Virus record (IMG/VR): IMGVR_UViG_3300029686_000225
Reading direction: 5' to 3' (one strand)
Source: a virus
Lineage: Duplodnaviria; Heunggongvirae; Uroviricota; Caudoviricetes
Length of the DNA: 48,664 bases
Position numbers and translations under genes: made by a program. Shown here one piece after another: positions 700 to 24,232 of the stretch (its first letter is position 1; every line of letters begins with the position of its first letter). The notes under the pieces are model-generated. The model was given only the letters and a program-made list of their open reading frames with translations. It ran no database searches and was not told the DNA's origin.

Positions 700-1055
700 C
701 AGTGAGTGACCTCTTCAAAGGTACAGTTAAAATCGGTATACATGGCATTATCCGAAATGCTCCACTCCCTGCAGACAACCCGGACAGTCCTGTTGTGTTT
801 TGGCGGACGCCACAAAAAAGCACGAATCCCGGCATGACGGGATAAAAAACTGTCCAGCGCGGCACGGGAGTATTCATCTGTGACACGAAATACCGGTTTA
901 AACGTTTTCAGATCCGCATTCAGACCACCAGCCCGTCGCTGTTCATATCCGTCACCAAACTTTACCGTAATAACTGATGGCTTTCGTGTCGTCTCCATCC
1001 CCTCACGGGGGATCCAGTTAAAAACTTCAGGCTCAGGCACTGTATAATCCTCCAT
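699..1055 (-). CDS. phage minor tail protein M (lambda gpM-like)
   Basis: VKFGDGYEQRRAGGLNADLKT motif matches lambda gpM VRFGDGYSQRAPAGLNANLKT; ATG at 1055 chosen, 998 and 1085 are alternatives. Confidence 0.7.
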   Translation of the reverse strand: MEDYTVPEPEVFNWIPREGMETTRKPSVITVKFGDGYEQRRAGGLNADLKTFKPVFRVTDEYSRAALDSFLSRHAGIRAFLWRPPKHNRTVRVVCREWSISDNAMYTDFNCTFEEVTH

Positions 1056-4000
1056 CCCGACGCGATGACTGCATAATTGACACAACCCTGCTGTCGATCA
1101 GATCCACCAGTCCCCTGGCTGAGCGCGTATCTATCTCGCCATTGCTCCCTTGATTCTGAATGCTGATGTGATACACGGGAGAATAAACAAATCCACCGCC
1201 ACCATTCACATTGCCAATGGCTCTGACCCCAAGAGAGCCGTCCGCTGCCCGTGTCAGTGGCATGATAGCTTCAGGCCCGGCCTCGCCCATCAGCCCGGCA
1301 CCTTTCGCAAAAGCAAAATACGTCGGTGTATCCACAATAGTGTTACTGTAAGCACTCAGATTTGCCGATGTGTAAACACCACCTTTTGCGTTTGCCACCG
1401 CCCCCGAAATCCATCCGCCGACCGTACCAAGCCACCCTCCGGCACCGGAGAGTGACTTCAGTCCGTTAACAATGGCCGCATTCATCAGAATTTTTGAAAC
1501 TTCCCGGAGAACTGAACTCCCCCAGTTCCTCCACTCCACAACATTCCCGGCCAGTGCATCGGAAATATTTGATACCAGCCCGTCCATCGTGGAAACGACA
1601 GCATCTGCCGCCTGTGAAGCATAATCGGTGGCACTGTCTGCCCAGTTGGTCAGTCCCTCCTGGAGTCCGGCATTCCAGTTATTACGTAAAGCATCGGCCT
1701 TTGCATAATAATCCTGCTGATCGCTGAGACGCTCTTCCAGATATTTTTTATTCAGTTCTTTCTCCTGTTTCCACAGGGCTTCTTCAATTTCTCCGGCCTG
1801 ATACTGTCTCAGCAGCTCGTTATTTTTCTGCTCAAACTCATGCCGGATACTCCACATTTCCTGGAGTCGTTCACGCATCCGTGAGCCTTCACCATATCCC
1901 AGCAACTGCGCGTCGTCAGATGCCCGGGCACTGGCATTACTGTCCGCCAGACTGCTTTCATACGCGGCAAACTGCTCACGAATCTTTTTCTGGTCGATGA
2001 GTGCTGCATTCTGCAAAAGCGTTTTTTTCTGCGCTTCTGACAGGGTTGATAATTCGCCCTGACTGACCTGATATTTCATCTTAGCCAGTTCAGTATTCTG
2101 CCCTGCCAGTGCTATCTGTTCTTTTTGCTGTTTAATCAGCCGTTTATAAATATCTTCTGTTTTTTCCGCTTCGGTCTTTTTATGCGCTTTGGGTTTATTT
2201 GCCTGGTTATTTCGCCAGGCATCCAGTGAGTTATTGATATAATTCTGTCTGGCTGTCTGATACACCTCCCCCACAAAGCCGAGATCATCCGCAGCATAGC
2301 CCAGTCGGGCACGCTCACGCGCTTCCCCCTTAAGGCGGGACAGAGCCAGTTCGCGCTTGCTGTTATTCAGTGCGGTCTGCTGTTTATCATCCAGAGTTGC
2401 CTGTGGTAGCCGTAACGGTACATTCACCAGCCCCTGTCGCTGCTGAAGTAATTCATTACCAAGCCCGAGAAGGCGATTAAACTCGGTATGCTGCCCATTC
2501 ATGATCAACAGGGACTGATACGCTTTATTTTGTTCCGCCGCCTGTTGACGGATCAACGCCACCCGTCGCTCCTCCAGCCCGGCAAGCACATCCTGAATGG
2601 ATTGCGCTTTGCCCTGCATTTGAGTGAGACGGGATTGTTCAACTGCCAGTTGATTTGTTGCTTCGGCAAGCCCTTTAAGGATGATTTCAGCACCCGAACC
2701 ACTCTGCGAACTTTCATCAAGCCAACGTTGATAATCAGCAATTTGATTTTTCAGTCCGCGAATTTTTCCTTCCTGTTCGCTAATCAGGCGATTTTGTTCC
2801 TCCAGTGCCTGCCGCGTCTTTTCCTCATTATCTGACGCTTCAGGAAGCGACATTGCCGACGTTTTCTGGCGAATTTCGTCGATTGTTGCGGCATACTGGC
2901 GTGCAGATTCTCTGGCCTGCTCCTGATTCTGATACATCGTGTACCAGGCCGCGGCCCCCAGCATGACAAGCCCCGGCACCCCACCAACCAGTCCCAGTGC
3001 TCCACTTAACAGACGACTTCCCACTGACGTGACAGTATTCAGCATTGTCTGTGCTGCTGTTCTGGCCGCAATATTACGGGTAAGTGATGCCTGGGCAGCA
3101 GCCAGTTTCGCTTCTGCGGCTGCCTGCCTTTCGGTACCGCGAGCAGCAACAACCGCCTGTTGCGCACGATAAACCGCCGCACGCGCCCTGGCTGTTGCTA
3201 TCTGTGTCCCCCGGAGCTGCGCTTCCGCAAGAGCCACTTCGTTTCTGGCTGCAGTAATTAATCCGGCAGTTGCAGATCCAGCAGAAGACGCCATATTGCC
3301 AAAATATCGGGCTACCCCGACGGCAACCAGAGCACCGGCAGCGGTTGCCACAGTGTCAATATTGCCTGCAATACCATTCAGCACACCGGAGAGCGTCTTC
3401 GTCACTCCGCTTGCCTCGTTCGCACCACCAACCCAGGCCATAAAGGCGTTTTCAACTTTGGTTGCAGAGGATGAAACCGTATCAGGCATTGCCGCATATT
3501 CATCACGTAATGCCCCAAGCTGACTAATCAGTGCAGGAACAACCTTATCGGCGGTCAACTTTCCGTTATCCGCCATGGCCTTCAGATCCTTACGGGCAAC
3601 CCCCATTCCCGCAGCCAGCGCACGAATAACACGATCGCCGTTCTCATTCACCGAGTTAAACTCTTCACCGCGCAGCACTCCCTGCGCCAGTGCCTGACTG
3701 AACTGCGTGATCACCGAACTGGCTTCTGCTGTACTGGCACCGGATAATTTCAGGCCCGTGGAGATCGCCTCGGTGACTTTCAGTACCTCCTCAGAACTGT
3801 AACCATACTCCCGCATGGAAGCTGCAGAACGGGCAAAAAGGCTGGCGTTATCAGAAAACGCCGTCCCCGTTCTCTGGCTGATCGCCATTAATTCACGCTG
3901 TGATGCCTGAAAATCATCACTGGACTGTGAGGCCTGCTTCAGACGGGCATTTACTGAATTCCACTCATCGGCGAGAGAAATAAGATGACCGGTAGCAAAA

Positions 4001-4239
4001 GCCCCGGCAAATGCCCCCGCCATATTCAGTGCCGAAGATTTAGCTGTATTTATCTGATCCGTCACTTCTGCCAGTGCACGCCGCATTTCACGGGATGCAG
4101 CAGCGGACTGCCGGCTTCCGTTCTGCATGGTACGGTAGTAATCCTGCCCCATACGCGAAGCCCGGGAGATCTCTGACTGGAATGACCGGGAATTTGCCGA
4201 GATTTTAATAATCAGTTCACGTAATGTCGCCACACTCAT
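1033..4239 (-). CDS. tail tape measure protein (lambda gpH-like)
   Basis: 1068-aa Ala/Gln-rich, coiled-coil-rich ORF between the G/GT chaperone and gpM; ATG at 4239 preceded by GGAG. Confidence 0.9.
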   Translation of the reverse strand: MSVATLRELIIKISANSRSFQSEISRASRMGQDYYRTMQNGSRQSAAASREMRRALAEVTDQINTAKSSALNMAGAFAGAFATGHLISLADEWNSVNARLKQASQSSDDFQASQRELMAISQRTGTAFSDNASLFARSAASMREYGYSSEEVLKVTEAISTGLKLSGASTAEASSVITQFSQALAQGVLRGEEFNSVNENGDRVIRALAAGMGVARKDLKAMADNGKLTADKVVPALISQLGALRDEYAAMPDTVSSSATKVENAFMAWVGGANEASGVTKTLSGVLNGIAGNIDTVATAAGALVAVGVARYFGNMASSAGSATAGLITAARNEVALAEAQLRGTQIATARARAAVYRAQQAVVAARGTERQAAAEAKLAAAQASLTRNIAARTAAQTMLNTVTSVGSRLLSGALGLVGGVPGLVMLGAAAWYTMYQNQEQARESARQYAATIDEIRQKTSAMSLPEASDNEEKTRQALEEQNRLISEQEGKIRGLKNQIADYQRWLDESSQSGSGAEIILKGLAEATNQLAVEQSRLTQMQGKAQSIQDVLAGLEERRVALIRQQAAEQNKAYQSLLIMNGQHTEFNRLLGLGNELLQQRQGLVNVPLRLPQATLDDKQQTALNNSKRELALSRLKGEARERARLGYAADDLGFVGEVYQTARQNYINNSLDAWRNNQANKPKAHKKTEAEKTEDIYKRLIKQQKEQIALAGQNTELAKMKYQVSQGELSTLSEAQKKTLLQNAALIDQKKIREQFAAYESSLADSNASARASDDAQLLGYGEGSRMRERLQEMWSIRHEFEQKNNELLRQYQAGEIEEALWKQEKELNKKYLEERLSDQQDYYAKADALRNNWNAGLQEGLTNWADSATDYASQAADAVVSTMDGLVSNISDALAGNVVEWRNWGSSVLREVSKILMNAAIVNGLKSLSGAGGWLGTVGGWISGAVANAKGGVYTSANLSAYSNTIVDTPTYFAFAKGAGLMGEAGPEAIMPLTRAADGSLGVRAIGNVNGGGGFVYSPVYHISIQNQGSNGEIDTRSARGLVDLIDSRVVSIMQSSRRDGGLYSA

Positions 4240-10530: not shown

Positions 10531-11256
10531 TTAAAGCGAGCGGATACCAACACTGATCAGGTGTTCAGACAGATCCGGCTCCGGTTCACCGCCATTGACC
10601 AGCATCCGGCTCATTGCTGTAAACATCGCAACAGGGCCGTCGATTTTGGCTTCAGGCGTGGATTTATTCGGGAAGATATTGTCGTTTTTGTCCGGTTTTA
10701 CCGTAACGTTAGACATCATCCAGTTCATGACCGGGTGATTACTGTGATGGAAACGTCCGGCATAGACCAGTGATTCCGTTTCCTTCATGGCCTCTGACAG
10801 ATTGCGGACCGTCTGCGGAACTTCCACCAGCGGTATACCTTCTTCAGCCAGCGCCAGACTGAACTGCATTGCACTCCACGGGTCAAATCCCAGTTCCCTG
10901 AGGTTTTCACCACCAATCCATTCCAGTAAGTCACTTTTTATCTGAGCATGATCGATAACATCACCATCCGTCAGGATGAGCTTATCCATCTCCGCCCATT
11001 TCCGGTAAAGTTCTGCCTGCTGCCGCGAGCACCGCTCCAGCCGTCCTTCCGGGAGCCAGAATTTAAAATCAGCATGAACATGTCCGTTATCGGTTCGCCA
11101 GAGTTTTGCCGCCGCACAGATATCAATCTTATGAGCAAGGTCGACGCCGACCCACATGGGATACGTTTTCAGCTCATGTCGTGGGGCAATATATTCGCAT
11201 TTCTCCCACTTAATCATGTCCATCCAGGCAGACTCTGCTGTTACCCACACATTCAT
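10531..11256 (-). CDS. terL: terminase large subunit, C-terminal nuclease part of a gene interrupted by the inserted element
   Basis: Colinear with the C-terminal 240 aa of the intact satellite TerL ([13 protein letters not shown] vs NIWCQGATPWMGN); no N-terminal ATPase domain in this ORF; upstream in frame reads LTKH then a stop. Confidence 0.85.
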
Positions 11257-11260
11257 GTGT

Positions 11261-11274
11261 TTGGTAAGAATATT
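11261..11274. repeat. left junction repeat of inserted element (att core TTGGTAAGAATATT)
   Basis: 12 of 14 identical to 26211-26224; 7-bp perfect core TTGGTAA; lies in terL codons L-T-K. Confidence 0.7.
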
Positions 11275-11520
11275 TCAAGTTTTTTAAAATCACCTGTATA
11301 TCAATCGTTTAACATGAAAAAACAGTCTTTATAAATCATCAAGCAATACACAGCGCAATACACGTATCTGTATTGTTTTAATGCTGATACACACCGTTTT
11401 TTGATATAGTGATTCGACCTACCATCGCGAAGCATTTTTTATTTCTTGTGTGTAACAATCTGACGAGGTGAGCACTCAAAGAGATAAGAGGCAGTAGAAA
11501 TTTCGATCCCCCCCTGAATG

Positions 11521-11701
11521 CAATTTTTCGTATATATATACAAAACAGCGCGGGTTATGCGGGTTAGCGGGTTATCTTCGCGTGCTAAGTATTTTTACTC
11601 TTTAATATCAATGCGTTAAAAAACAACGTATTTAAATATCAGCCAGAATGTAACCCGCAAGACATTCAAAATAACCCGCAAACACCCCTCAAATAACCCG
11701 C
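11521..11701. repeat. iteron cluster (GCGGGTTA x3 direct, TAACCCGC x3 inverted) with adjacent (TA)n tract
   Basis: Direct copies at 11550, 11559, 11567; inverted at 11651, 11672, 11694; alternating TATATATATA at 11531-11545. Confidence 0.7.
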
Positions 11702-11782
11702 AAAAACATCCCTGAAAGTGGGTACCGGTAATACTGAAAATTTATTCCATTAAATGAGCATTGTCCTCTCTCATCCATTCCG

Positions 11783-13444
11783 TTACACACCATCAAACGC
11801 CGCAAGCCGCTCTTTGTGGCTGTCGCTCATATCGAATGCAAATTCCTCATGCTCTGCCTGGAATGTGCCAAACGCCATCAGCGCCGCAACGCTCGGGTCT
11901 ATCTTGTTGGATGATTTTTTCTTGTTCGGCTTGATATTGGCGTTCGCGTCACTCTGCATCACAACATTACTCATTGACCAGGCCAGCACCGGATCACCAC
12001 GATGCACAATCACCTTCCGGTTAACAAAAACTTCGAACGATTTCGCCGCCGGACTGAAACGAAGGTATGTTTGCGGGAACGGCTCCACCTCAAATCCTGC
12101 GCCCTGTAGCTGCGTCCTCAGGTGCGTGGCGTTCCATGTATCGAAACCCACCAGCCTGATATTGAAATTCTCTGCATCCGCCATGATGTCATCACGGATA
12201 CGGTCATAATCAATGCAGTCACCCGGTGTTGTGCGTATCCAGCCCGCCTTTACCCACTGGCGATAGATGGCGCGGTTTTTATTGGCGGGGTTCTGTAGCT
12301 GAAATTCCGGCAGATAGTGACGGGAAACCAGCATAATCTTTTTACCGACCGGAAAGGCATAGCACACGCTGGAAATATCGCTGGTTGATGATAAGTCCAG
12401 CCCCGCGTAGCACTCCTGCCCGTATAAATCCGCCTCCGCGAACGTTCCGGCGCACTCCGCCCATGCACCATTACCCATCCACGGCGTAGCCCCCTGACAC
12501 CAGATATTGAATCGCTTGGTGAGCATTTCCACCCACTGCGACGGAATACCCCGCGCTTTCTGGATGGTTGAGGCCAGTTTTTCACGATCGACGGAAACAT
12601 CGATATTGGGATTCGCCTTTATCCACATCTCCGGATCGTCAACCTCGCTTTCATCATCCAGCTCGTAAATCAGCACGAACATGGATTCGTTCACCTCTTC
12701 ACCATCCAGTATCTGGCAGCAATAGTCGTAGTGTTGTTTACAGGCTGAAACAACGTTGCTCCCCGATGTGGTGATGGCAAATAATAACCCCTCCGGGCGT
12801 GCCCCCATTCCCAGTTCAAGCGCGGAATAAACCCCGTTGTCAGGGTGCAGGTGATATTCATCCACAATGGCAAGACTCGGGTTTGTACCTTCAATGGTTG
12901 CCGCTTTTGCTGCCAGCGGCTTTAACAGGCTGTTGGTTTTTGGGTGTATCACCTTGTGTGCCTGAATATTTACCCGCTTTCGTAACGGTCGGGATAAAAG
13001 GCACATCTGACGCGCATCATCAAACACGATCCGCGCCTGATCACGACTCACGGCGGCGGTGTAAATATCCTGCTGCCCGTTTTCCATAACCAGAAACCAG
13101 TTAGCCAGGATAGCGGCGACCGTGGATTTGGCATTTTTTCGCGGTACTTCAATGAATGCGCTGGTGTATTTGCGCCGCCCGGTGGCCTTAACCTTAAAGC
13201 CCAGGATGCACGCAAAGGCGAACTGCTGCCACGGCTCCAGTTTAATTGGGCTACCGCGCATTGCGCCTTTTACGTGCGGACACACCCTGGAAAAGGCAAT
13301 AAACCGCTCCACGACCTCCGGATCGAACGTGTAAAGGGGGTTTTCAAGGTCATAAAAATACCGTTTAACGGCCTGTTTCAGTCGTTTACAGGCCGTAATT
13401 TTGCCGTTTTTTACGCCTTCTGCGTACTCATGCCAGGCGGTCAA
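11783..13444 (-). CDS. terL: terminase large subunit (satellite copy, intact)
   Basis: 553 aa; P-loop-like region RKNAKST, Walker B IVDEYH, C-terminal nuclease domain; TTG start with GAGGA RBS, overlapping terS end. Confidence 0.9.
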   Translation of the reverse strand: MTAWHEYAEGVKNGKITACKRLKQAVKRYFYDLENPLYTFDPEVVERFIAFSRVCPHVKGAMRGSPIKLEPWQQFAFACILGFKVKATGRRKYTSAFIEVPRKNAKSTVAAILANWFLVMENGQQDIYTAAVSRDQARIVFDDARQMCLLSRPLRKRVNIQAHKVIHPKTNSLLKPLAAKAATIEGTNPSLAIVDEYHLHPDNGVYSALELGMGARPEGLLFAITTSGSNVVSACKQHYDYCCQILDGEEVNESMFVLIYELDDESEVDDPEMWIKANPNIDVSVDREKLASTIQKARGIPSQWVEMLTKRFNIWCQGATPWMGNGAWAECAGTFAEADLYGQECYAGLDLSSTSDISSVCYAFPVGKKIMLVSRHYLPEFQLQNPANKNRAIYRQWVKAGWIRTTPGDCIDYDRIRDDIMADAENFNIRLVGFDTWNATHLRTQLQGAGFEVEPFPQTYLRFSPAAKSFEVFVNRKVIVHRGDPVLAWSMSNVVMQSDANANIKPNKKKSSNKIDPSVAALMAFGTFQAEHEEFAFDMSDSHKERLAAFDGV

Positions 13445-13784
13445 GCTCGTCCTCTTCCTCTGTTTCCGGTGGATTTCTGCGGCGGCTTACCGGGTCAAAA
13501 CCCAGCAAAGAAGCCATTTTGATCATTATTCTTTCTGCGTCAGCCTTTGCGCTCAGAGCGGGGTTTCTGCTTTCGCTGCCCTGACTGTTAACAATGCTGA
13601 AGCCGCGCGTCGCAAGGTCTTCGACGGCTTTGCGGTATATGGAGTAGTTAACGCAATACAGTTCCAGATTGCTCCAGTCGGCGGGGGTAAGGTCTTCCCG
13701 CCCGGAAAGCTGGCGCGATTTTTCCTTCCACTGCCTGACCGCGATTTCATCCAGGTAAGCGGGGGCTTTTGGTGGTCTTGCCAT
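13428..13784 (-). CDS. terS: terminase small subunit (P27 family)
   Basis: Starts MARPPKAPAYLDE; homologous to the prophage TerS (MSGPPKTPPRL...); immediately upstream of terL. Confidence 0.8.
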   Translation of the reverse strand: MARPPKAPAYLDEIAVRQWKEKSRQLSGREDLTPADWSNLELYCVNYSIYRKAVEDLATRGFSIVNSQGSESRNPALSAKADAERIMIKMASLLGFDPVSRRRNPPETEEEDELDRLA

Positions 13785-14072
13785 GTTCTTTTTTCGCCCA
13801 ATTATTTTCAAAAAAATTTCCGTGCACAAAAATTTGAGGAGGCGGTCGGTGTCCGGCAGGGACGGTTTTGTCCTGAAAACCTCCCCCACCCCCTCTGACG
13901 GCCTCACCAGCGATTGCGAAAACATTCCATGACCTCGCGGTCACGGTCGGTTAATCGCTTCGCTGTGGTGCGTTCTGTGCGCCCTGTCCTGTTGGCTTTG
14001 TGCCCTGTCTCCTGTGTCTTCCATAAGTCACGCTGCCTTATCAGTCCACGTATCAGCCTGTTTTGCTCCTGT

Positions 14073-14513
14073 TCAGTCATCATCGCCATACATCCAGTCG
14101 TTACGGTGTGCCGCCCGTTCTTCCTGCTCGCGATACATACCCGCCTTACGGTTCGCTTTCGTGGCTGGATCTTCCCGTGTTGTCTTACGGTTATGGCACG
14201 TCTGGCACAATGCCTGGTGGTTCCACTCAGGCCAGAAGAGAACATCACCGCCGCCATTGATGGGAATGATGTGATCCACCACAAGAGCTGGCGTATAAAT
14301 CCCCTTAGCCAGACAACGCACGCATAACGGATTTTTGCTCAGGTACAGGGCGCGGTATTTGTCCCACTGTCGGGAATACCCGCGCGCGCGGCGGTGTCCC
14401 CGTCTGGCATCCTCTGCACGCCATGCAGCCCGCCTGTGATCTTCGCACTTGCCGGACTTCACGCGCTTATTACAGCCCGGCTCAGTGCATCGCCTTAATG
14501 GTTGCCACGGCAT
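14073..14513 (-). CDS. HNH endonuclease (packaging-associated)
   Basis: Cys-rich Zn motifs and HNH core (DHIIPINGGG ... CQTCHNRK); located upstream of terS. Confidence 0.85.
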   Translation of the reverse strand: MPWQPLRRCTEPGCNKRVKSGKCEDHRRAAWRAEDARRGHRRARGYSRQWDKYRALYLSKNPLCVRCLAKGIYTPALVVDHIIPINGGGDVLFWPEWNHQALCQTCHNRKTTREDPATKANRKAGMYREQEERAAHRNDWMYGDDD

Positions 14514-14812
14514 CAGTACACCCCTACATCACGATAAACCGACCAGAGCGCAGAAATAGCCATAGGCAGTTCAGACTGCTCCACAGGTGAAACCGCTTCC
14601 CTGTTCTCGTACAGGAAAGCGATGTACATCAGGCAACCAACACGTATTGCCGGGGTAAATTCCAGCCCGTCTTCAAAACGTTTCCCGATATGCTTCTGGC
14701 AGGCTTCCAGCGCCGCATCGGTATACATTTTCAGAAGTTCGCCTTCTCCGGAAAAGTCATCAAGGCGAAGATGTGCCCTGACTTCATCAGGTGTAATTTT
14801 TTCTTCACTCAT
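14513..14812 (-). CDS. gp6-like head-tail connector protein
   Basis: Starts MSEEKITPDEVRAHLRLDD, the gp6-like signature; GGTGA RBS. Confidence 0.65.
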   Translation of the reverse strand: MSEEKITPDEVRAHLRLDDFSGEGELLKMYTDAALEACQKHIGKRFEDGLEFTPAIRVGCLMYIAFLYENREAVSPVEQSELPMAISALWSVYRDVGVY

Positions 14813-16019
14813 CTTTTTCACCTTTAATTTCCACCGTCTGCTTCCATGCCTGGCTGAATTCGTCGCCACCTTCACGCGGCGGCATCCCCTCACGTTCGCG
14901 GGCTTCGTTCGGATTCATGATCCCGTTCTTAATCCCTTTCTCATACGTGGCGTAACGTTCGGTAGGGGTGGCGCGTAATAAATCGGCTGAATCAAACTCA
15001 ACCAGATAACGGGTACCAGGTACGGGAGAAGCCACCAGCAAAGCGGCCTTAATTTGCTGTTCGAAGTTCGCCAGCCATGGGCGCATTGTCATGGTCAGAA
15101 ACGCGCGGCTTGCCTCGCTGAAATTGCTGTAGGTGCTGTTGCTGTATTCCTGCAGAAAAATAGGCGATACGTTGAACATCCGGGCGATGTCTTCAATGGA
15201 GAAGCGACGGGAGGCCAGCCATTCCGCATCCTGGTTACTCATCCCCAGTTGCTTGTAATCCATGCCCCCTTCAAGGATTGGCGTTTTTCCGGCATTTTTC
15301 GCCCCCTTGTAGCGTTCCAGGGCGTCTAATGCCTGTTTACCTTTCACGCCGTCCAGCCATTCGCCTGACGTGATAATCCCTGCCGCCATCATGCCATCTT
15401 TCATAATGCTGGCTCCGTGACGCTGTTGAGCAAGGCCAAGCCCCAGCGCCTCACGGCAAATCGTGACGGGGGAACGTCCCAGAAAGCCATCATCCGAGGC
15501 ATAGCGGAGATGCAGGACTTCTTCCTGTAAATACGTGCGTACCGTTCCTGTATAGGGTTCGGTGATGGTATAGCGGTATTTGTGTGCGCCTGTGCGTTCC
15601 GGTACAACACACCCCGGCGCATAAGGATGAAGTGATTTTGGCTGACCGTCCCGCCCCCATTCAATAACCGCATAGGCGTTACCGTTCAGCAGGCAGTGAC
15701 GCATCATTGTGCGTTTAAACTGGTAAGGTGTCTGGCACGAATTAGGCTGCTCATTCAGCAGAATATCTACCGGATGACTGTCCAGCCATTCCCGCGCCTC
15801 CCTGCCCTTGTCATTACGTACCAGATACAGATAACACGGCATCGTGGCCACCGCCTCAGCGATGACGGAAACCGCGTTCATCACAGCAGGCAATGATTCA
15901 GCCGTCCCGGCAGAAACATATTCTCCGGATCCGGTATTCGGTACGCCGGACAGCGCCAGAAAATCATCAATGGACAGGTTACGCAGATCGCTTTTTTTAC
16001 GACTAAAAGGCCACCACAT
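14805..16019 (-). CDS. portal protein, HK97 family (satellite)
   Basis: About 404 aa with portal-family pattern; start directly after protease stop. Confidence 0.85.
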   Translation of the reverse strand: MWWPFSRKKSDLRNLSIDDFLALSGVPNTGSGEYVSAGTAESLPAVMNAVSVIAEAVATMPCYLYLVRNDKGREAREWLDSHPVDILLNEQPNSCQTPYQFKRTMMRHCLLNGNAYAVIEWGRDGQPKSLHPYAPGCVVPERTGAHKYRYTITEPYTGTVRTYLQEEVLHLRYASDDGFLGRSPVTICREALGLGLAQQRHGASIMKDGMMAAGIITSGEWLDGVKGKQALDALERYKGAKNAGKTPILEGGMDYKQLGMSNQDAEWLASRRFSIEDIARMFNVSPIFLQEYSNSTYSNFSEASRAFLTMTMRPWLANFEQQIKAALLVASPVPGTRYLVEFDSADLLRATPTERYATYEKGIKNGIMNPNEAREREGMPPREGGDEFSQAWKQTVEIKGEKDE

Positions 16020-16020
16020 A

Positions 16021-16581
16021 TCACAACCCCGCCAGTTCAGCCCAGCGATGACGATTATTTCCTGTCGGGCGTAATTCAGGGTGCTGTGCAAACAACGAAC
16101 GGTGGGCAATCTCCACGCCGGATTCGGGATAAGCAGGCATCGACGTTATCGTGATTTCACGGAGTTCTGCGGCGGTAACAGTGCGCAGATACGGTTTTTG
16201 CGCGATATTCCATTCTTCGCATAATGCGCGAAAGCCAAAGCTCATTCCTGTAATGTCGCCACGCTCCACCAGCGTAAGCACATCTTTTCCAAGCTGGGTA
16301 TCAGGCGGTGTCAGTTCAAAACGTAGCCCGGTGTTGTCCTCAGTCAGTACCAGTGTTCCGGATTTGGTGCGCCCCAGCAGTCGGGTATAGTCATGCTCAT
16401 ACAGGCAGCGCACATCATTACCCGCCGCCAGATAGTCAGCAAAAGCCCCCGGCGTGAACTGTTCGCGGAATTCGTCCCAGATAATTTCTGAAAGGCTGTT
16501 CCAGCGAACGGCATAACCCACCAGTTTTTTATCGCTGGCGGTCAGTTCAGATGTACGGATTTCAAAATCGGTATTTTTCAT
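16021..16581 (-). CDS. prohead protease, HK97 family (satellite)
   Basis: About 186 aa; GGAG RBS; motifs LGRTKSGTL and MSFGF typical of the prohead protease family. Confidence 0.8.
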   Translation of the reverse strand: MKNTDFEIRTSELTASDKKLVGYAVRWNSLSEIIWDEFREQFTPGAFADYLAAGNDVRCLYEHDYTRLLGRTKSGTLVLTEDNTGLRFELTPPDTQLGKDVLTLVERGDITGMSFGFRALCEEWNIAQKPYLRTVTAAELREITITSMPAYPESGVEIAHRSLFAQHPELRPTGNNRHRWAELAGL

Positions 16582-16630
16582 CGGTGTACTCCATAAAGCT
16601 GAAAAAGGAGGCCGAAGCCCCCTTTGCTCA

Positions 16631-17776
16631 TTACTTGCCAGCCTGAATTTCCAGAATCTTGATGGCGTTCGAATCCACCACACCACCGCCCAGATATTTC
16701 TGGGTATAGATGTTAATGAATCCGGGTTCGCTGAAATCCGGACGGGTTCGCGTACCGGTTTCATGGTCAACGATGAAATAACCGCGCTTAAAGTCACCTA
16801 CTGCAATCACACCGTCCGGCATAAATTCCAGATATTCAACCGGAAGCCCCAGCAGAGAATCAGGATCACCAGCCTGTAAACGATCGCGCCAGATGTAATC
16901 ACCAGTGGCATTTTTCAGTTTTTGTGCGGAGGCGGCTGTATTTGAGTTCATCACCCATACAGCTTTTTTGCGGTACTTATTGCGTAGCGTAAATTTCAGG
17001 TCAATCAGCATGTCGGCGCTGAGACTGCCAGTCACTTTTTTCGTCTGGAGCGTACCGAAAGGACGGGTTTTGTCGTTATCCGCAGTGCGCGGAAAAGCCA
17101 GGAAACCTTTAGCTTTTTTCTCGCCATCACCAGAAACCAGATCCGTTTCTTCGGTATCAACGAAAGTGTCGCCAATTTCAGAAGATAACCAGCTCATAAT
17201 ATCGACTTCGGAAAAATCGATAATTTCCTGAGTGGTTTTTGGGTAAGCGTAGATCGGATACAGGCGGATACTGACTTCATTCAGTTTTGGGGTTGCCGTC
17301 TGGTTACGTGTAGTGCCTTCTTCACCGTGTTCAACGACCGCGCCCCCGGCAGAAACCAGTTGCTTAAATTCATTGCTGTGAATGGTTTTAACGGTACAGA
17401 TTTTACGCATCACCGATTCATCAGAAAGCTGACGCATAATTTCTCTGTTCAGTTCCGGGATAACCGTATAACCACCATCAGCCGGGACACTGCCAGACAG
17501 GTTGCGGGTTTCCCCGGTCAGAATGTAAGAGCGCAGTTCGTCTTTGGTTATTTTCTCTTCGACGGAAACACCAGGCTGGTTACGTTCTTCATCAGCCACA
17601 GATTCGAGGCGGGAAATTTCTGTGTCGAGGGAATCGGCTTTTGCACGCAGTTCATCAAACTGTTTGCCCTCGTCATCGTTCAGGCTGCGGTTTTCACTGT
17701 CGGCTTTTTCCAGCAGGGATCGCATCTGGTTTTTCAGGGCGGTTTTTTGCTGGCGGAGTTCGATTAATTTCTTCAT
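16631..17776 (-). CDS. major capsid protein, HK97 family (satellite)
   Basis: 381 aa with N-terminal coiled coil and HK97-like core. Confidence 0.9.
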   Translation of the reverse strand: MKKLIELRQQKTALKNQMRSLLEKADSENRSLNDDEGKQFDELRAKADSLDTEISRLESVADEERNQPGVSVEEKITKDELRSYILTGETRNLSGSVPADGGYTVIPELNREIMRQLSDESVMRKICTVKTIHSNEFKQLVSAGGAVVEHGEEGTTRNQTATPKLNEVSIRLYPIYAYPKTTQEIIDFSEVDIMSWLSSEIGDTFVDTEETDLVSGDGEKKAKGFLAFPRTADNDKTRPFGTLQTKKVTGSLSADMLIDLKFTLRNKYRKKAVWVMNSNTAASAQKLKNATGDYIWRDRLQAGDPDSLLGLPVEYLEFMPDGVIAVGDFKRGYFIVDHETGTRTRPDFSEPGFINIYTQKYLGGGVVDSNAIKILEIQAGK

Positions 17777-18013
17777 GAAGGTTTTCTCGTATTGGTTAAG
17801 ATTCAGGACGTGAAACCAACACGGAGGGAGCGCCGCCCGACACTCTCGGCATCTCGCAGATCAACCCGGCATCGCGCAGGGGGTCAGGCGGCATTGTGGC
17901 GGCTCACGTCTGAGTGCCACACGCCAACATATACATAAAAATCAGTATGTAAACATCAGCCAGAATCACCGAACAACCTGGAACAACCACGAACAAATAA
18001 TTTACAAAACCTG

Positions 18014-18040
18014 AAAAAAAGACCCGGAAAAATCCGGGCC
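18014..18040 (-). terminator. intrinsic terminator
   Basis: Hairpin CCCGGAAAAATCCGGG flanked by A-run and T-run; minus strand reads hairpin then TCTTTTTTTC. Confidence 0.5.
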
Positions 18041-18049
18041 TTTATCGCT

Positions 18050-18298
18050 TTATTGTTTCACTGGATCCCGCATTCTGCGTCTTATTTTCCACAGATATTC
18101 GATCATCGCTTCCACCTGCTCACGGTTGGTTGCGAAAATTTCCCCGGTCAGTGAGCTACGCAGAAAATCATGATGATCCACAACAAACAACGCATCGGAA
18201 GAAAGCAGACGGCGATATTTTTTTGCTGTCGTGGTTTCCAGATCATCAAAACCATGAAATTTTTTATGTTGCTGGACTTCTTCAAATGTCACTGGCAT
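18050..18298 (-). CDS. hypothetical protein
   Basis: 82-aa ORF with AAGGGGG RBS; no recognisable motif. Confidence 0.5.
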   Translation of the reverse strand: MPVTFEEVQQHKKFHGFDDLETTTAKKYRRLLSSDALFVVDHHDFLRSSLTGEIFATNREQVEAMIEYLWKIRRRMRDPVKQ

Positions 18299-18831
18299 GT
18301 ATCCCCCTTTACTGCCCGGCGCTGGCGCTTGTGCTTCTCATTCAGCGCCATCAGCCGCGTTTCTGCCTCCTGCTGTTCCTGTGGTGTCACCTCGCCGCAC
18401 GGCTGGCCTTTCAGGTCGTAACGTGCACCACCAGCCATTAAGGCGCGGTAATAGCGCGGAGACTGCGCATAGGATGCCAGCGTCGCACGTAATGCCCCCG
18501 GCCCGAATGTCAGCCCCCTGGCGGCGATATCCTGCATCAGGTCGTCGCATATCCCCACCTTAAGCGGCTTCGGTGCTTCCCGGCTGAATAAGTCAGGCCA
18601 CATCTCTGTGAGGCGGTTAACGCGCCTGCGGTTTTTGCGCTGGCGTTTGGTCATATGCCGCCACGGTGTCGCCTCTGTGGGCTTCTGTTTGCGGCTCTGC
18701 TGTGCGTTCTGATTGCCGGGCATCACTTTATGCGCCGATGTGGCTTTATCCTGCTGCTGTGCCGTCTGCGTTGTTTTCTGCGGCGTGCCGTAAATGCCTT
18801 TCGGTTTTCGGTTAATGGTCAGCGTTGTCAT
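18289..18831 (-). CDS. ProQ/FinO-family RNA-binding protein
   Basis: C-terminal region PLKVGICDDLMQD...LRATLASYAQSPRYYRALMAGGARYDLKGQPCGEV resembles the ProQ/FinO domain; basic N-terminus. Confidence 0.65.
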   Translation of the reverse strand: MTTLTINRKPKGIYGTPQKTTQTAQQQDKATSAHKVMPGNQNAQQSRKQKPTEATPWRHMTKRQRKNRRRVNRLTEMWPDLFSREAPKPLKVGICDDLMQDIAARGLTFGPGALRATLASYAQSPRYYRALMAGGARYDLKGQPCGEVTPQEQQEAETRLMALNEKHKRQRRAVKGDTCQ

Positions 18832-18867
18832 GCTTTCCCCTGTAATAACTCTGTTCGCTGTTGTGAA

Positions 18868-19293
18868 TTAAAACGGTATGTTATCCCCGTACGGGTCATC
18901 GTGCTGGCTTGTCTGTTGTTTTGCCCTGTTCAGTGCGTCAGTGGCCTGGCCCTGCTGGCCTTTTTTGCCGCCCGGTCGCGCCGTTCGCGCACTGATTACG
19001 CTGTCTGCGATAACCTGCCAGCCCTGTCGCGTTTCCCCGTTCTGGCCTGTCCACTGGCTTACCTGCATGTTACCCGCCACGCTCACCAGTTCGCCTTTGC
19101 GGTGTTTTGCCAGTGCGTCGGCCTGTCTGCCAAACGCCAGGACAGATAACCACATCGTCGCCGTTCCGTCATCTGCCTGGCTGCACGGCAGGGGAACCGC
19201 CATACTCGCCATAGCCATTTGTGTCCCCTTGCTGGTGGTCTTTAACTGCGGGTCAGCCACCAGCCGCCCGTAAGCCGCTATCTGTGCTGTCAT
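18868..19293 (-). CDS. ssb: single-stranded DNA-binding protein
   Basis: OB-fold pattern and acidic C-terminal tail ...DDPYGDNIPF. Confidence 0.8.
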   Translation of the reverse strand: MTAQIAAYGRLVADPQLKTTSKGTQMAMASMAVPLPCSQADDGTATMWLSVLAFGRQADALAKHRKGELVSVAGNMQVSQWTGQNGETRQGWQVIADSVISARTARPGGKKGQQGQATDALNRAKQQTSQHDDPYGDNIPF

Positions 19294-19357
19294 GCTGTCT
19301 GTTCTCCGGTTTTAACGTTGATTGTTACGCTTGTTTACACCCTTACGGTGAAATTCT

Positions 19358-19480
19358 GCGGGTTATAATCGCACTTTTGCGGGTTATAACTGCCGTTTTG
19401 CGGGTTACGTGCGGGTTATTGATTTCCTTTTTATTCATACAGTTAATGCACTTATGCACAGGATAACCCGCATAACCCGC
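19358..19480. repeat. candidate replication origin iterons (GCGGGTTA x4 direct, TAACCCGC x2 inverted)
   Basis: Direct copies at 19358, 19379, 19400, 19411 (21, 21, 11 bp spacing); inverted at 19464, 19473; immediately 3' of the primase-helicase gene. Confidence 0.7.
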
Positions 19481-19503
19481 AACTTTTCACCTCACACAGG
19501 GGG

Positions 19504-21627
19504 TTAATCTTCTGCCTCAGGCTGGAACATCAGCACGTAAAAAACATGCTGCTTCCCCCCAATTTTGCCGAGCGCCTTTTTCTTGTAACGGCGATCGTTA
19601 CCCGCTTCCAGCATTCCGGCAGCACTCAACGCGCGGGCAAAGTGAGACGGATTAAATCCCTGTGCTATCTCACCCTCAAATACATGCGGGAACGTGTAAA
19701 AACGGAACTCGTCATCTTCGTTTCTGATACACCCCTTTCTGTATCCGGCAAGCTCTTTAATCGGTAAATCACGCTCGTCGGTGTTGGGCCACGGAAGGTA
19801 TCTGCTGAATCCGAACGACGCTAAAAAAGCCTCTGCCTGTTCAACCATCTGTTTAAACTCCCTGTTACCCGTGCCGAACTCCTTCACCCAGGCATTAAAA
19901 TTATGCTGAATGGCATCGCGGCACGCCTGAACATCCCAACCAGTAATATGGACGGAAAGCACCAGCGCCGACTCCAGCATGGCGAATCGTTCCCCCACAC
20001 GGTGAACCTGTTCGCCGTAACTCTCCGGTATCAGGTTGCGCCACCGTTCACGGCATGCCCTTACCGTATCCTTTGCCTCCTGCTGGTGGTCTGCCAGCCA
20101 TTTAACCCATTCACGCCCCGCCGCCCCGTGATTTTCTGTCCAGGCATCCTTTAACGCGTCTGCGTGTGCCTTTCCGGTGCTGTATTCGTGAAACTGCGTG
20201 GCTTTTTCCATTGGCACGTTAAGCAGGCGGACAAGCTGCCCCGCCTTGACTTTTATCCCCTCCGTTTTGAGGAATGTCTCAACGTCCATTTCTCCGGTGC
20301 TGATTGCCACCGTGCGCCAGTGTTTGATCTCCCTGTTGCCGCCGTCCTTCGCCCCCTGTAATTTCCCCGAACCGTTAAACAGCGTATAAGCCGACGTGGA
20401 CACTTCCCGCGCGTTTCCGGCCTGGCCTATTTCATCCAGGGGTAAAAGCCCGTCATTGTGTGCCTCTGCTTCGTTGGCGATACCTAACGCTGTGCCGTAC
20501 CAGGTCAGCCGCTGCGCGTCCGGCTCTCCCCATAAACTTGATGCGATGTTCTGCGTTGTGGTCTTACCTGCCGATGACTGTTCGAAAAGATGTACCCCGA
20601 AGCCGTCAGCACCCACCAGCCCGATTAATGGTGCGGATAGCGATACCGCCACACCCAGCATCATGGACGGATTACCACCAGCCAGTCGCGCCACACTGTC
20701 GCGCCAGCCCTCCGCCGTTCCTGCCACGGAATAACCATTAACGGCAGCCGTTTTTCCGGTAAACAGGACTGGCTTTTCGCAATCACCAATGACCGAACCG
20801 TCCGGCATGATGTACGCGCCAAAATGCCAGCCCGTTGTTGTGCTTAACTGCCATTCCTCATGGTTTCCGCTTAACTGCATCCAGTCAGCCAGGATAGCCC
20901 TGTATTTACCGTTGGTTGTCACGTTCAGTCCGTGGTCTTTCAGCAGCCGCCAGCCGTCACGGTCGCCAATGCCACCGCACGGAACCGCCATCGTGATGAC
21001 TTCATGGTTTGCTGGCTTTTTCCAGCGCATCACGCGGTAATGCTCTTTGCCGATTGTCCCCGTTCCCAGTAGCTCAAGCGGGGAGCATAACCACGTTTCA
21101 GGCCGGATAATTTCGCCTGACTGCTTATCCACTTTTGGCGTTACCCAGAAAACACCATCGGCGCGGCTTTCAACGCGGGGCTTTAATTCATCATCACCCG
21201 GGCTTTCTGTGATTTTTTTCTTTAAGGGCAACACCAGACTTTCCCCGCGCTCGTATTCGTCTTTGAGGCGAGGCAACTGGTCGGATAAATCCGCCGGGCT
21301 GGTGTCAGTTATCCCCGCGTATTCGTATACGGTCTTCACGCCAGCCACAGCCAGCAACGTGACGATCTGTGTGAGGCTACGTTCAGTGATGTGCCCTGCG
21401 CGGTAAATACGCACACACTGACGGCTATCATCAATAATTTGATAACCGGTAATATCTTTCAGGTGTTCATCTGACAGAACGACAGGCGGCACATTGTCGG
21501 CGGCAATATGCTTACCTGCCCATTCCTGCCACTCTTTCGCATGGCTCCACGCATCACTACCCGCAAAGATGATAACCTCCGTCATTTTGTCGGCTGGCTG
21601 GTGCTTTAAGTTTGGTGCGCGCTTCAT
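19504..21627 (-). CDS. replication initiator, putative primase/helicase
   Basis: 707 aa with Walker A-like SSAGKTT; sits next to the iteron cluster as PICI/P4 replication genes do. Confidence 0.7.
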   Translation of the reverse strand: MKRAPNLKHQPADKMTEVIIFAGSDAWSHAKEWQEWAGKHIAADNVPPVVLSDEHLKDITGYQIIDDSRQCVRIYRAGHITERSLTQIVTLLAVAGVKTVYEYAGITDTSPADLSDQLPRLKDEYERGESLVLPLKKKITESPGDDELKPRVESRADGVFWVTPKVDKQSGEIIRPETWLCSPLELLGTGTIGKEHYRVMRWKKPANHEVITMAVPCGGIGDRDGWRLLKDHGLNVTTNGKYRAILADWMQLSGNHEEWQLSTTTGWHFGAYIMPDGSVIGDCEKPVLFTGKTAAVNGYSVAGTAEGWRDSVARLAGGNPSMMLGVAVSLSAPLIGLVGADGFGVHLFEQSSAGKTTTQNIASSLWGEPDAQRLTWYGTALGIANEAEAHNDGLLPLDEIGQAGNAREVSTSAYTLFNGSGKLQGAKDGGNREIKHWRTVAISTGEMDVETFLKTEGIKVKAGQLVRLLNVPMEKATQFHEYSTGKAHADALKDAWTENHGAAGREWVKWLADHQQEAKDTVRACRERWRNLIPESYGEQVHRVGERFAMLESALVLSVHITGWDVQACRDAIQHNFNAWVKEFGTGNREFKQMVEQAEAFLASFGFSRYLPWPNTDERDLPIKELAGYRKGCIRNEDDEFRFYTFPHVFEGEIAQGFNPSHFARALSAAGMLEAGNDRRYKKKALGKIGGKQHVFYVLMFQPEAED

Positions 21628-21938
21628 TTTGCCTTTCCCCGTTCACGAATAATTTCACGTACTGCCTTAATGCGTTCCATTCCTGTAACGCGCATGATTC
21701 TGTCGATGTCGCTTAATTCTGCTGGTGGTGCTTTGCTTACCAGGGTGAACTCCCTGTCAAAGCGCATATGTGACGACACGCAGGGATGCGCATAACCTTC
21801 GCGGATATAGGTCACACGAAAATCATCGACGGTTTTAATCGTTATCGTGCTGCCGTATTTATCCCGGAAAATATCACCGGGGCGGATTTCAGGCCGAGCG
21901 TGACCGCTGGCAGTAAAGCCAGAATTTTTCTTTTTCAT
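21624..21938 (-). CDS. hypothetical protein
   Basis: 104-aa ORF; stop overlaps primase start (ATGA). Confidence 0.5.
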   Translation of the reverse strand: MKKKNSGFTASGHARPEIRPGDIFRDKYGSTITIKTVDDFRVTYIREGYAHPCVSSHMRFDREFTLVSKAPPAELSDIDRIMRVTGMERIKAVREIIRERGKAK

Positions 21939-21944
21939 GTTTTT

Positions 21945-22163
21945 TTACTCCAGAGGCAGCTTTTTAGCGGCGAGCTCAATATCAGATGTCAGAGAAACCT
22001 GTGTATTTGCCAGGTCTAACAACAAAGAAATAAGAATTTCTTCTCTGCTATCGGATTTATCGGTGCTAAGGCTGTTCATCCACATATTGACGACTTCCCT
22101 GATTTTTTTCGCAGAGTGCAGGGCTTCAAATGCCAGGTCTTCAATATCATGTTTATTTCGCAT
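21945..22163 (-). CDS. hypothetical protein
   Basis: ATG at 22163 with G-rich RBS; 72 aa. Confidence 0.4.
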   Translation of the reverse strand: MRNKHDIEDLAFEALHSAKKIREVVNMWMNSLSTDKSDSREEILISLLLDLANTQVSLTSDIELAAKKLPLE

Positions 22164-22398
22164 AATCGCCCCCGCCATTTTCACAATCAGCAATCAGGAT
22201 GGCTTTAGCCTCATTCAGCGCCATATCAGCGGTAAGCTGTGCGTAAGCCAGCGAATGCGGGATTATCGCCCCTGTATATTCCGTCTCTCTGGTAATGTGT
22301 TTTTCTGCGGTTGCTGCCGTGCATGAAATATCAATCAGCGCGTGCATTAGCGTTTTGATGGCTTCGGCGGCTGCGTCCGGACGGGTGTTATTGCACAT
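22153..22398 (-). CDS. hypothetical protein
   Basis: 81-aa ORF with AGGGGG RBS. Confidence 0.45.
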   Translation of the reverse strand: MCNNTRPDAAAEAIKTLMHALIDISCTAATAEKHITRETEYTGAIIPHSLAYAQLTADMALNEAKAILIADCENGGGDYAK

Positions 22399-22594
22399 GG
22401 CGTACCCCCTGACGAATACGGGCGGCGAATACCATCACGCAACCAGCCGGGGATTGCTGGCGTGCTTCCTGTTCGCTGGTGGCCTCAATGGTAATCACGC
22501 GCGGTTGTGCCGTGCTCAGGGCGATAAAACGCCAGATGTATTTATTCAGGTTGTGCGAGTCCCGCCCTTGCGGGTGTGTGGTATGATTTCTCAT
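22388..22594 (-). CDS. hypothetical small protein (first gene of leftward operon)
   Basis: 68 aa; ATG at 22594 with GAGGT RBS; only the 3' 207 nt of the 363-aa track ORF is taken as real. Confidence 0.4.
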   Translation of the reverse strand: MRNHTTHPQGRDSHNLNKYIWRFIALSTAQPRVITIEATSEQEARQQSPAGCVMVFAARIRQGVRHVQ

Positions 22595-22691
22595 AGCTAC
22601 CTCGATACTTCTGCTATCGTTGGTGGTTAGAAGCCCTGCGAGTGGTAACGACACTTGCGGGGCTTTGCATTTATGCGCCTTGATAATTTTA

Positions 22692-22727
22692 AGGTGTGGC
22701 CCACTATATGTTTTAGGTGTGGCCCAC
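22692..22727. promoter_or_regulatory. two 13-bp direct repeats AGGTGTGGCCCAC in a divergent promoter region (candidate operator)
   Basis: Repeats at 22692-22704 and 22715-22727, 23 bp apart, followed by TATACT and the RHH gene RBS. Confidence 0.45.
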
Positions 22728-22793
22728 GTCAAGAGTTTTATTTGTGCTTTTTCTGTGTATACTGTCCCCCACCAATCCACCAGAGGAATAGAA

Positions 22794-22973
22794 ATGGCAA
22801 CGGGTACAACAAACGCAAAATCACAAGCTCTAAAGGCTCGTGTACCACACGAAATAGTAAACGCCATGGAATCAGTGAAAGAATCAGGCGAAAGCACATC
22901 ACAATTCATCATTACGTCAATGCAAGGCGAGATCAAACGCCGCCAGCGTCGCAAGGCCAAAGAGCAGGAGTAA
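22794..22973 (+). CDS. putative ribbon-helix-helix-type regulator
   Basis: 59-aa ORF with AGGA RBS; only plus-strand gene in the element. Confidence 0.45.
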   Translation: MATGTTNAKSQALKARVPHEIVNAMESVKESGESTSQFIITSMQGEIKRRQRRKAKEQE

Positions 22974-23310
22974 CCATCACCAGCGCCGTGGTGTGAGGAA
23001 TCACGGCGGCAACCATAGGAGTAAAAGATGCCAAAACTTAAAAATTGTGCACTCTGTGCGATTGTTCTAATTGTCGCCGCCTTTATCTTAAAATCATGCT
23101 TCGAGAAAAAGAATCTTTGCGGAAGCAATGAAGGCGATATATTACGGCGTGCTTGCGATATAGAGTTGAAAAAAAGTTGAGCATAACCTAACCGCGACAA
23201 TGCCGTAGTTCCTGTAATTACAGAACAGCTCAGGATTTGCCCACCAGCCGCAAATGTGGCATTGTTGGTTATGCTCATGCGTTGGGGATAACGTGTAGCT
23301 TGTGTCAAGG

Positions 23311-23339
23311 GGCCACCGTAGCGGGTGGCCTTTGTTTTG
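23311..23339 (+). terminator. intrinsic terminator (plus strand)
   Basis: GGCCACC-GTAGCG-GGTGGCC then TTTGTTTTG. Confidence 0.5.
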
Positions 23340-23376
23340 CCTGTTATCCTGCAACTATGGTCATTTCGACCACGGT

Positions 23377-23465
23377 TGATATAATCCCCCCGCACAGATT
23401 CATTTTTTGCGCAGTAGGTTAATTGTTCGCAAGGGCGCTCCGGTAACGGGGCGCTTTTTGTTTTT
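23377..23465 (+). ncRNA. candidate small RNA (extended -10 promoter to intrinsic terminator)
   Basis: TGATATAAT at 23377-23385; hairpin GCGCTCCGGTAACGGGGCGC plus T-run at 23435-23465; no ORF. Confidence 0.3.
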
Positions 23466-23623
23466 ACCCACCAGCACAATAAAAATCTTCATTTTCCATT
23501 TTTGTAAAATTTCATGCTTTCCGGACGACTGGTAATATGTCATTTTTTAGCAGAAGATTTTGCCTTGCTGGTGGGTAGCTTCCCGGTCAACACGATGTAC
23601 CGTATAATCAACACCGCGTGTGG

Positions 23624-24217: not shown

Positions 24218-24232
24218 CACTTTCTACCTCAC

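Follow-up and report, generated by a model that had tools for sequence, protein, structure and literature searches.

A second iteron unit beside the attachment site of a capsid-forming phage satellite is probably an origin-type unit cognate to the satellite's DUF927 Rep

A cluster of iterons located beside the attachment site of a capsid-forming phage satellite, taken together with the (TA)5 tract, the AT-rich centre and the conserved flank that accompany it, is probably a complete and functional origin-type unit cognate to the satellite's own DUF927 Rep. The cluster would constitute one half of a two-unit origin, displaced to the opposite side of the 15-kb element from the half that lies next to rep. 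The decisive evidence for regarding it as a cognate Rep-binding origin unit is that, among related satellites, the type of iteron covaries with the C-terminal domain of Rep.

An exact search of the window, by which is meant the whole 48,664-bp stretch of DNA analysed here, identified 12 matches to the iteron GCGGGTTA, compared with a mean of 1.07 expected from dinucleotide shuffles; the shuffled windows contained a maximum of 5 copies, and 0 of 100 shuffles reached 12. Every copy falls in one of two clusters, and none is found elsewhere in the window. Cluster 2 (11550-11701), referred to here as the distal unit, contains three direct copies on the + strand, starting at 11550, 11559 and 11567, and three inverted copies on the - strand, at 11651, 11672 and 11694, and cluster 1 (19358-19480) contains four copies on the + strand (19358, 19379, 19400 and 19411) and two inverted copies on the - strand (19464 and 19473). 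An extended consensus, TTTTGCGGGTTAT, is common to all 12 copies. The sequence TATATATATA, that is (TA)5, has a single occurrence in the window, at 11531-11540. The distance between the clusters is 7.66 kb, and cluster 2 is 7.7-7.8 kb from the initiator gene rep. An earlier note on this DNA had described three direct and three inverted copies of one 8-mer at 11521-11701, with an alternating TA tract beside them, about 8 kb from a first cluster, inside the element boundary and downstream of terL. The copies were borne out by the exact search and the shuffles, the tract is present and unique, the measured distance agrees with the estimate, and the placement is correct, with the terL stop at 11783 and the attachment core at 11261-11267. 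Because the 12 copies are confined to two clusters and TATATATATA occurs nowhere else in the window, the observation is confirmed as it was written.

The distal unit is preceded by a left flank (11418-11530, + strand), ending in GAAATTTCGATCCCCCCCTGAATGCAATTTTTCG, that was delimited from a blastn map and the sequences of the relatives L003, L004 and L174. This flank is kept wherever the unit is distal, also in elements with other iterons, and is missing when the unit adjoins rep contiguously. Next to the flank is the (TA)5 tract (11531-11540), a candidate DNA-unwinding element, followed by the three tight direct iterons (11550-11574, + strand; spacing of 9 and 8 bp), an AT-rich centre of 76 bp and 70% A+T (11575-11650), the left half of which is conserved and the right half variable, and the three inverted iterons (11651-11701, - strand; TAACCCGC on the + strand), which are spaced 21 and 22 bp apart, or two helical turns. 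The AT-rich centre holds a match to the IHF consensus, TATCAATGCGTTA, at 11606-11618, and the window has only six such matches. Furthermore, two of the window's 12 least stable 20-mers sit in cluster 2, one in the TA tract (the 20-mer at 11522) and the other in the centre. A search of the distal region with Rfam returned nothing beyond a chance snoRNA match (E=0.74), and scans of the same region gave one weak promoter-like site compared with 2 expected, no terminator and no tRNA; an RNA gene, promoter or terminator function for this region was rejected because these scans gave no signal.

Cluster 1 (19358-19480) is the rep-proximal origin unit, with four direct and two tightly spaced inverted iterons; 24 bp separate its end from the stop codon of rep, the DUF927 gene. 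Its direct iterons are spaced 21, 21 and 11 bp apart, its AT-rich centre is 45 bp long, and its inverted pair has a spacing of 9 bp. When reverse-complemented, cluster 2 reads as three iterons (22/21 bp), followed by the AT-rich centre and by three inverted iterons at tight spacings of 8 and 9 bp, and in this orientation its iterons are in register with those of cluster 1, with an alignment score of 118.5 compared with 60 +/- 6 for shuffles. By the measure of this alignment, clusters 1 and 2 are mirror-image paralogues.

Both clusters belong to a satellite of 14,950 bp (11268-26217), a capsid-forming PICI (cf-PICI) that lies inside a prophage terL and is co-oriented with it. The satellite genes from 11783 to 26039 are all on the - strand, and Pfam matches give the order integrase, Bro-N protein, DUF4222 protein, 707-aa DUF927 protein, SSB, ProQ/FinO-domain protein, major capsid, prohead protease, portal, connector, HNH, TerS and TerL. 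The scanned satellite ORFs gave no match to a tail-gene family, and a 1068-aa ORF at 1033-4239, taken for the tape measure, lies outside the satellite. The presence of an integrase, a replication module, capsid, protease, portal, connector, HNH, TerS and TerL with no tail genes identifies the element as a cf-PICI, a class for which this gene content has been described (10.1101/2022.09.08.507074). The satellite's own terL (11783-13444, - strand; 553 aa; Pfam TerL_ATPase and TerL_nuclease) is the last gene before the distal unit, and cluster 2 is positioned 82 bp beyond it and 283-440 bp inside the terL-distal satellite end. A 363-aa ORF at 22388-23479 (- strand) matches only an Icd-like cell-division-inhibitor domain, over its last ~45 residues, and is probably an over-call, since relatives annotate several short genes there.

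The ends of the satellite are marked by the attachment core TTGGTAA, which is present at 11261-11267 (terL-distal end) and again at 26211-26217 (int-proximal end). The flanking ORFs, 26045-27238 and 10531-11256, are two halves of the prophage TerL and match positions 2-68 and 64-283, respectively, of the Pfam TerL_nuclease profile; when the sequence is joined at TTGGTAA, an uninterrupted prophage TerL of 585 aa is restored. These data indicate that the satellite is 14,950 bp long and is embedded in a helper late gene. [quoted passage not shown] A 21-bp direct repeat, GCAATACACAGYGCAATACAC, was observed at 11343-11363 and 26060-26080, which is 76 bp and 131 bp, respectively, inside the satellite ends. 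It reads GCAATACACAG(Y)GCAATACAC, two 9-mers 12 bp apart, and GCAATACAC is found in two copies at each satellite end. The repeat copy at 26060-26080 lies 20 bp upstream of the int start, and on the other arm an IHF-consensus site (11299-11311) is located between the attachment core and the repeat. As an attachment core, GCAATACACAGYGCAATACAC was rejected because joining there leaves 5 stops, the true core being TTGGTAA; the 21-bp repeats and the IHF site are probably integrase arm-type sites of attP.

The rep gene (19504-21627, - strand) encodes a 707-aa initiator-helicase with a Pfam DUF927 match that resembles SaPI Rep and SCCmec Cch. Its structural relatives are 8tch ('pathogenicity island protein'; E=4e-14) and 5dgk (the SCCmec helicase Cch), and its NCBIfam match is Cch1; by these matches, Rep is a self-loading initiator-helicase of the SaPI-Rep type. 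A P4 alpha signature was not detected in Rep, for which Pfam gives DUF927 only.

Relatives of the distal region were identified by blastn in 372 of 5,426 complete E. coli genomes, and a scan of IMG/VR with the tight iteron-pair pattern GCGGGTTATGCGGGTTA yielded 71 more loci. When the whole genome-contig collection was scanned with GCGGGTTATGCGGGTTA, only single scattered matches in unrelated phyla were obtained (among the matches listed, 80 of 93 stretches). Rep, SSB, capsid, TerL, integrase and both units, the homologues of clusters 1 and 2 being called units 1 and 2, were located on all loci, and the loci fell into three layouts. The contiguous layout (A), in which Rep is followed by unit 1, unit 2 and then SSB, was found in at least 16 loci, including L001, L006, L101, L109 and L111. 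Sakai Sp7 (L001; E. coli O157, EcCIEDL933 type) represents this layout: its unit 2 homologue (11001-11154) adjoins its unit 1 homologue (11167-11333), and the two contiguous units come directly after the primase-helicase gene. The split layout (B), with unit 1 after Rep and unit 2 at the far end by the attachment site, is that of the window and also occurs in L005, L100, L102, L119, L124, L128, L130, L131, L148, L156, L182 and L183. Split elements occupy at least five integration sites (prophage terL, yifB, dinD/yicG, tRNA-Ile and thiM/rcnR), and their cargo is cf-PICI, defence-like or minimal. The relative orientation of units 1 and 2 is identical in every layout A and layout B locus; this conserved orientation is weak evidence, since the split elements may stem from few rearrangement events. 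Both units are present in all 12 of the complete-genome elements inspected that encode a cognate Rep, which occupy six or more integration sites; the 12 are few cases, most of which were found through the unit itself. Because the relatives were mostly found by searching with the unit or its flank, a claim of invariable presence would be open to ascertainment bias. The proximal unit stands alone in several IMG/VR loci, which contig ends may have cut.

In the orphan layout (C), a GCGGGTTA-type unit 2 lies at the far end of a satellite that has a different Rep with its own iterons in the usual place. The orphan-bearing L002 (unit at 16208-16361) encodes a RepA helicase with CCCCACTTTT iterons, L003 (unit at 12136-12288) encodes a primase-family protein with GGTAGACAG iterons, and further satellites with orphan units are L143 and L145/L150. 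These copies indicate that a GCGGGTTA unit does not need a cognate Rep in cis in order to persist. Between L003 and L148, the latter an element with a cognate Rep, the copies are ~98% identical, as judged by eye in the alignment; this identity suggests that the orphan units are the result of recent swaps of the rep module, and they consequently say little about selection in the orphan state. Orphan units may be remnants of such swaps, or may have been retained because they serve in cross-replication or competition among satellites that reside together. Two elements whose Rep is non-cognate, L179 (12100-12140) and L181 (12100-12130), lack the TA tract and iterons between conserved flanks, a loss that fits a function dependent on the cognate Rep. 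A GTAT microhomology was observed at the L179 deletion junction. The length of the unit was also seen to be polymorphic, with three to five tight iterons and a tract of (TA)5 to (TA)7 (L101 12030-12063, L136, L182 12107-12120 and L183 6595-6606), the tract of L182 being (TA)7.

Three relatives, L004, L174 and L175, have the same left flank and TA tract followed by a repeat that differs from GCGGGTTA. In L174, the distal unit consists of three tight copies of a GTCCCA-core repeat (spacing 9, 9), an AT-rich centre and three inverted copies (21, 22), and in the proximal unit, after the DUF927 gene, GTCCCA-core copies spaced 21, 21 and 11 apart are separated by an AT-rich centre from two tight inverted copies (9); compared to the window, the geometry of the unit matches at both units but the sequence of the iteron differs at both. 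Against the window Rep, that of L174/L175 shows 99% identity in the N-terminal part and 95% in the core, but only 45% in the C-terminal ~130 aa. For the Rep of Sp7, which keeps GCGGGTTA, the identities to the window Rep are 44% (N-terminal part) and 90% (C-terminal part). L178 encodes a Rep with an L174-type C-terminus (86% identity), and its contiguous two-unit origin is built of GTCCCA-core iterons. Relatives with different iterons (L174 and L178) retain the (TA)5 tract, and the GTCCCA distal variant is present in 73 genomes. Across the sequences compared, the distal iteron type follows the Rep C-terminal domain, and this covariation would be predicted for a unit that Rep binds and that is maintained in a working state. 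From the covariation of iteron type, we infer that specificity for the iteron resides in the last ~130 residues of the DUF927 Rep (about nt 19507-19890); in SaPI-type Reps, a C-terminal winged-helix domain reads the iterons (PMC9371898). The DUF927 Rep was seen to be a three-part mosaic of an N-terminal part of ~130 aa, a helicase core and the C-terminal ~130 aa, and the discordant identities of these parts (in L001, L006, L102, L174 and L178) point to their independent recombination.

An alignment of 38 distinct unit 2 homologues was used to measure conservation of the distal unit. The iteron columns are 97.2% identical to the window, compared with 80.3% for the other columns, and the (TA)5 tract is invariant in all 38 homologues. 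The segment with the IHF-like site is also conserved, with the site itself present in most of the 38, and the number of tight iterons varies from 3 to 5. At the level of alignment columns, these data show purifying selection on the distal iterons.

Origins of SaPIs and PICIs are defined by 6-12 iterons and an AT-rich centre, with at least two iterons on each side in opposite orientation (PMC9371898, PMC6092414), and they are described as one block placed directly 3' of rep, a layout treated as a family hallmark (PMC6092414). Cluster 2 has this architecture, with 3 + 3 copies of GCGGGTTA around the 76-bp, 70% A+T centre, and the iteron sets and AT-rich centres of clusters 1 and 2 each agree with the published PICI origin definition. 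The likeness comprises six iterons, an AT-rich centre, opposed orientation and an iteron type matched to the Rep C-terminal domain; specificity of the iteron for the C-terminal domain of the cognate Rep is seen comparatively, between window/Sp7 on the one hand and L174/L178 on the other. A position immediately downstream of rep is found for cluster 1 and for the Sp7-type homologues of cluster 2, but not for cluster 2 itself. Thus, dissimilar from the single block 3' of rep, the window has in addition a full second unit 7.7 kb away, with a conserved flank and (TA)5. The composite origin of Sp7/EcCIEDL933 is a direct homologue with the same GCGGGTTA iterons, TA tract, spacer and mirror-image pair; however, its units are contiguous (~330 bp) after rep, whereas those of the window are separated by the SSB-to-terL block (7.7 kb).

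In P4, the initiator is the alpha primase-helicase, which has a C-terminal origin-binding domain, and the same iteron is found in ori and in crr, several kb apart; crr consists of two 120-bp direct repeats and is needed in cis for initiation at ori. The window is similar in that the repeat of one initiator occurs in two separated cis regions of a small satellite genome, at a distance of 7.66 kb. However, the P4 initiator is of the alpha type, whereas the window Rep is DUF927/SaPI-Rep-like and falls outside the alpha type, and P4 crr is built of long direct repeats, whereas cluster 2 is an inverted origin-like unit and differs from crr in structure. Because the family of the initiator and the structure of the second site both differ, the window system does not belong to the P4 ori/crr family; by analogy, its two clusters may work as ori and crr do. 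The comparison with P4 had been drawn in the earlier note, and the two separated sets of initiator sites on which it was based are upheld by the covariation and by homology to Sp7, but with a DUF927 initiator and no crr-like repeats the likeness to P4 is one of analogy only. In the plasmid R6K, distant iteron clusters communicate via the initiator by looping and activate a remote origin (gamma/alpha/beta), and in P1 (incA) and F (incC) auxiliary iteron clusters restrain copy number by handcuffing. These systems resemble the window in that one iteron occurs in distant clusters, which in the window too would communicate by way of the initiator; however, R6K, P1 and F have other initiator families, a plasmid life style and direct arrays, whereas the window has mirror-image origin units.

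Following induction and excision, Rep hexamers would bind the iterons of both units via the C-terminal domain, and the TA tract and AT-rich centre of the distal unit, which should be easily melted, would then be opened. The distal unit would act in cis in initiation and have a positive role in replication. It could fire as an origin in its own right, or the distal and rep-proximal units could cooperate by Rep-mediated DNA looping, like P4 ori/crr or R6K gamma/alpha/beta. Given its invariant TA tract and lowest duplex stability, the distal unit may be the main unwinding site in split elements. We also entertain, as a distinctly tentative proposal, that the distal unit is an independently firing, trans-activatable origin that is passed as a cassette from satellite to satellite, and that the mirror-image units pair by Rep-mediated looping in cognate elements. 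If this were true, L002, L003, L143 and L145/L150 would keep the unit for replication by a co-resident GCGGGTTA-specific Rep, or to titrate that Rep, and phage satellites would be joined in a network of origin sharing or origin competition; the two-unit looping would then be a convergent re-invention of P4 ori/crr by an MCM-like initiator of the SaPI type.

Iterons matched to, and covarying with, the cognate Rep C-terminal domain would also be expected if the distal iterons titrated Rep or 'handcuffed' the proximal origin, in which case cluster 2 would be a negative copy-number or incompatibility locus that restrains replication. Auxiliary iteron clusters outside the minimal origin are standard in iteron plasmids such as P1 and F, and the orphan copies could be incompatibility determinants against competing satellites. 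We nevertheless consider handcuffing unlikely, because cluster 2 has a full origin architecture (inverted iteron sets, AT-rich centre, invariant TA tract and IHF-like site) as opposed to a plain array, and because a satellite would need burst replication after induction and not a stable low copy number; in addition, part of the origin next to rep in Sp7-type elements is a homologue of the unit. Alternatively, the unit could be a non-functional relic, half of an ancestral origin that was stranded by recombination or rearrangement between satellites and has not yet decayed. Satellites are mosaic, to the point that the N-terminal part, core and C-terminal domain of Rep recombine independently, orphan units are found beside non-cognate Reps, and in L179 and L181 exactly the unit is lacking from between conserved flanks, all of which would suit a relic. 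However, the iteron of a relic would not change along with the Rep C-terminal domain against a constant spacing and flank, and a relic would not be expected to show 97% identity in the iteron columns and 80% elsewhere; moreover, both observed deletions are in elements with a non-cognate Rep, and 12 of 12 cognate elements retain the unit, so that decay of a stranded half-origin is a quite improbable explanation.

The position of the cluster invites two other explanations. In the excised circle, it would lie upstream of int at a distance of ~280-440 bp from the crossover core, the unit adjoins the attachment core in every split element, and an IHF-consensus site is close by (11299-11311); it could, for these reasons, be an accessory part of attP or of the int control region, composed of integrase arm-type sites or of sites by which Rep regulates integration. 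This is very unlikely, as the same motif builds the rep-adjacent origin of Sp7-type elements, far from att, and the unit is common to elements with different integrases and sites (prophage terL, yifB, dinD, tRNA-Ile and thiM/rcnR). Conversely, L006/L101, with nearly the same integrase as L003 and the same site, are without the distal cluster, and the GCAATACACAGYGCAATACAC repeat at both ends is a better candidate for the arm site. On the grounds of distribution among satellites, an identity of cluster 2 as integrase arm sites was rejected. The earlier note had offered a packaging site as an alternative, that is, an accessory cos/pac site for the satellite's HNH-TerS-TerL machinery. The unit is directly downstream of the packaging operon, and its repeats around a bendable AT-rich segment with an IHF-like site are superficially like a cosB region; however, satellites that lack these terminase genes (L003, L005 and L174) also carry it, and it is absent after terL in cf-PICIs of the Sp7/EcCIEDL933 type, a group with a 92% identical TerL and a known capacity for self-packaging (10.1101/2022.09.08.507074). 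Furthermore, the motif tracks the Rep C-terminal domain and not TerS/TerL, and local alignment of the left flank and unit gave no similarity to lambda cos, with scores at noise level. Cluster 2 thus has neither similarity to a known cos nor a distribution linked to terminase type, and the packaging alternative, which these observations do not support, has hardly any likelihood. A lambda-type cos in the left flank, suspected from a GACGGGGCGGA motif, was likewise rejected after a noise-level alignment against the lambda cos junction.

The iteron origin of PICIs is known as a kind of element, as is the embedded cf-PICI context. The cf-PICI preprints and PICI papers searched contain no description of iterons or of a second origin unit in cf-PICIs, and do not place the cf-PICI cos; similarly, the literature searched contains no second origin unit displaced to the far end, no orphan units beside another Rep, and no mapping of iteron specificity to the last ~130 residues of a DUF927 Rep. 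If the distal unit is functional as a cognate origin-type unit, constructs limited to rep and the neighbouring sequence may fall short as minimal replicons for a large group of E. coli satellites, to which capsid-forming PICIs under development as delivery vehicles belong, and long-range or dual-site control would have to be counted among the ways in which self-loading MCM-like Rep helicases initiate replication. Natural swap pairs are available in the window and L174, whose Reps are alike except in the C-terminal domain, and in Sp7 and the window, which are contiguous and split, respectively. The orphan units beside non-cognate Reps point to possible cross-replication or incompatibility between co-resident satellites.

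Two further repeats were observed in related elements. A TGTCAC repeat, present in 3-4 copies at a spacing of ~9-11 bp after a G-run (L183 6930-7010 and L181 12115-12190), adjoins a 94-aa ORF after terL in several cf-PICIs and is absent from the window. The distal non-coding end of Sp7 (L001 2340-2760) contains several repeated units of ~100 bp, each with a short hairpin (ttaccgcgcc ... gaaaatatcaac); these hairpin repeats fill the position where split elements carry the origin unit, and similar pieces are found in L003.
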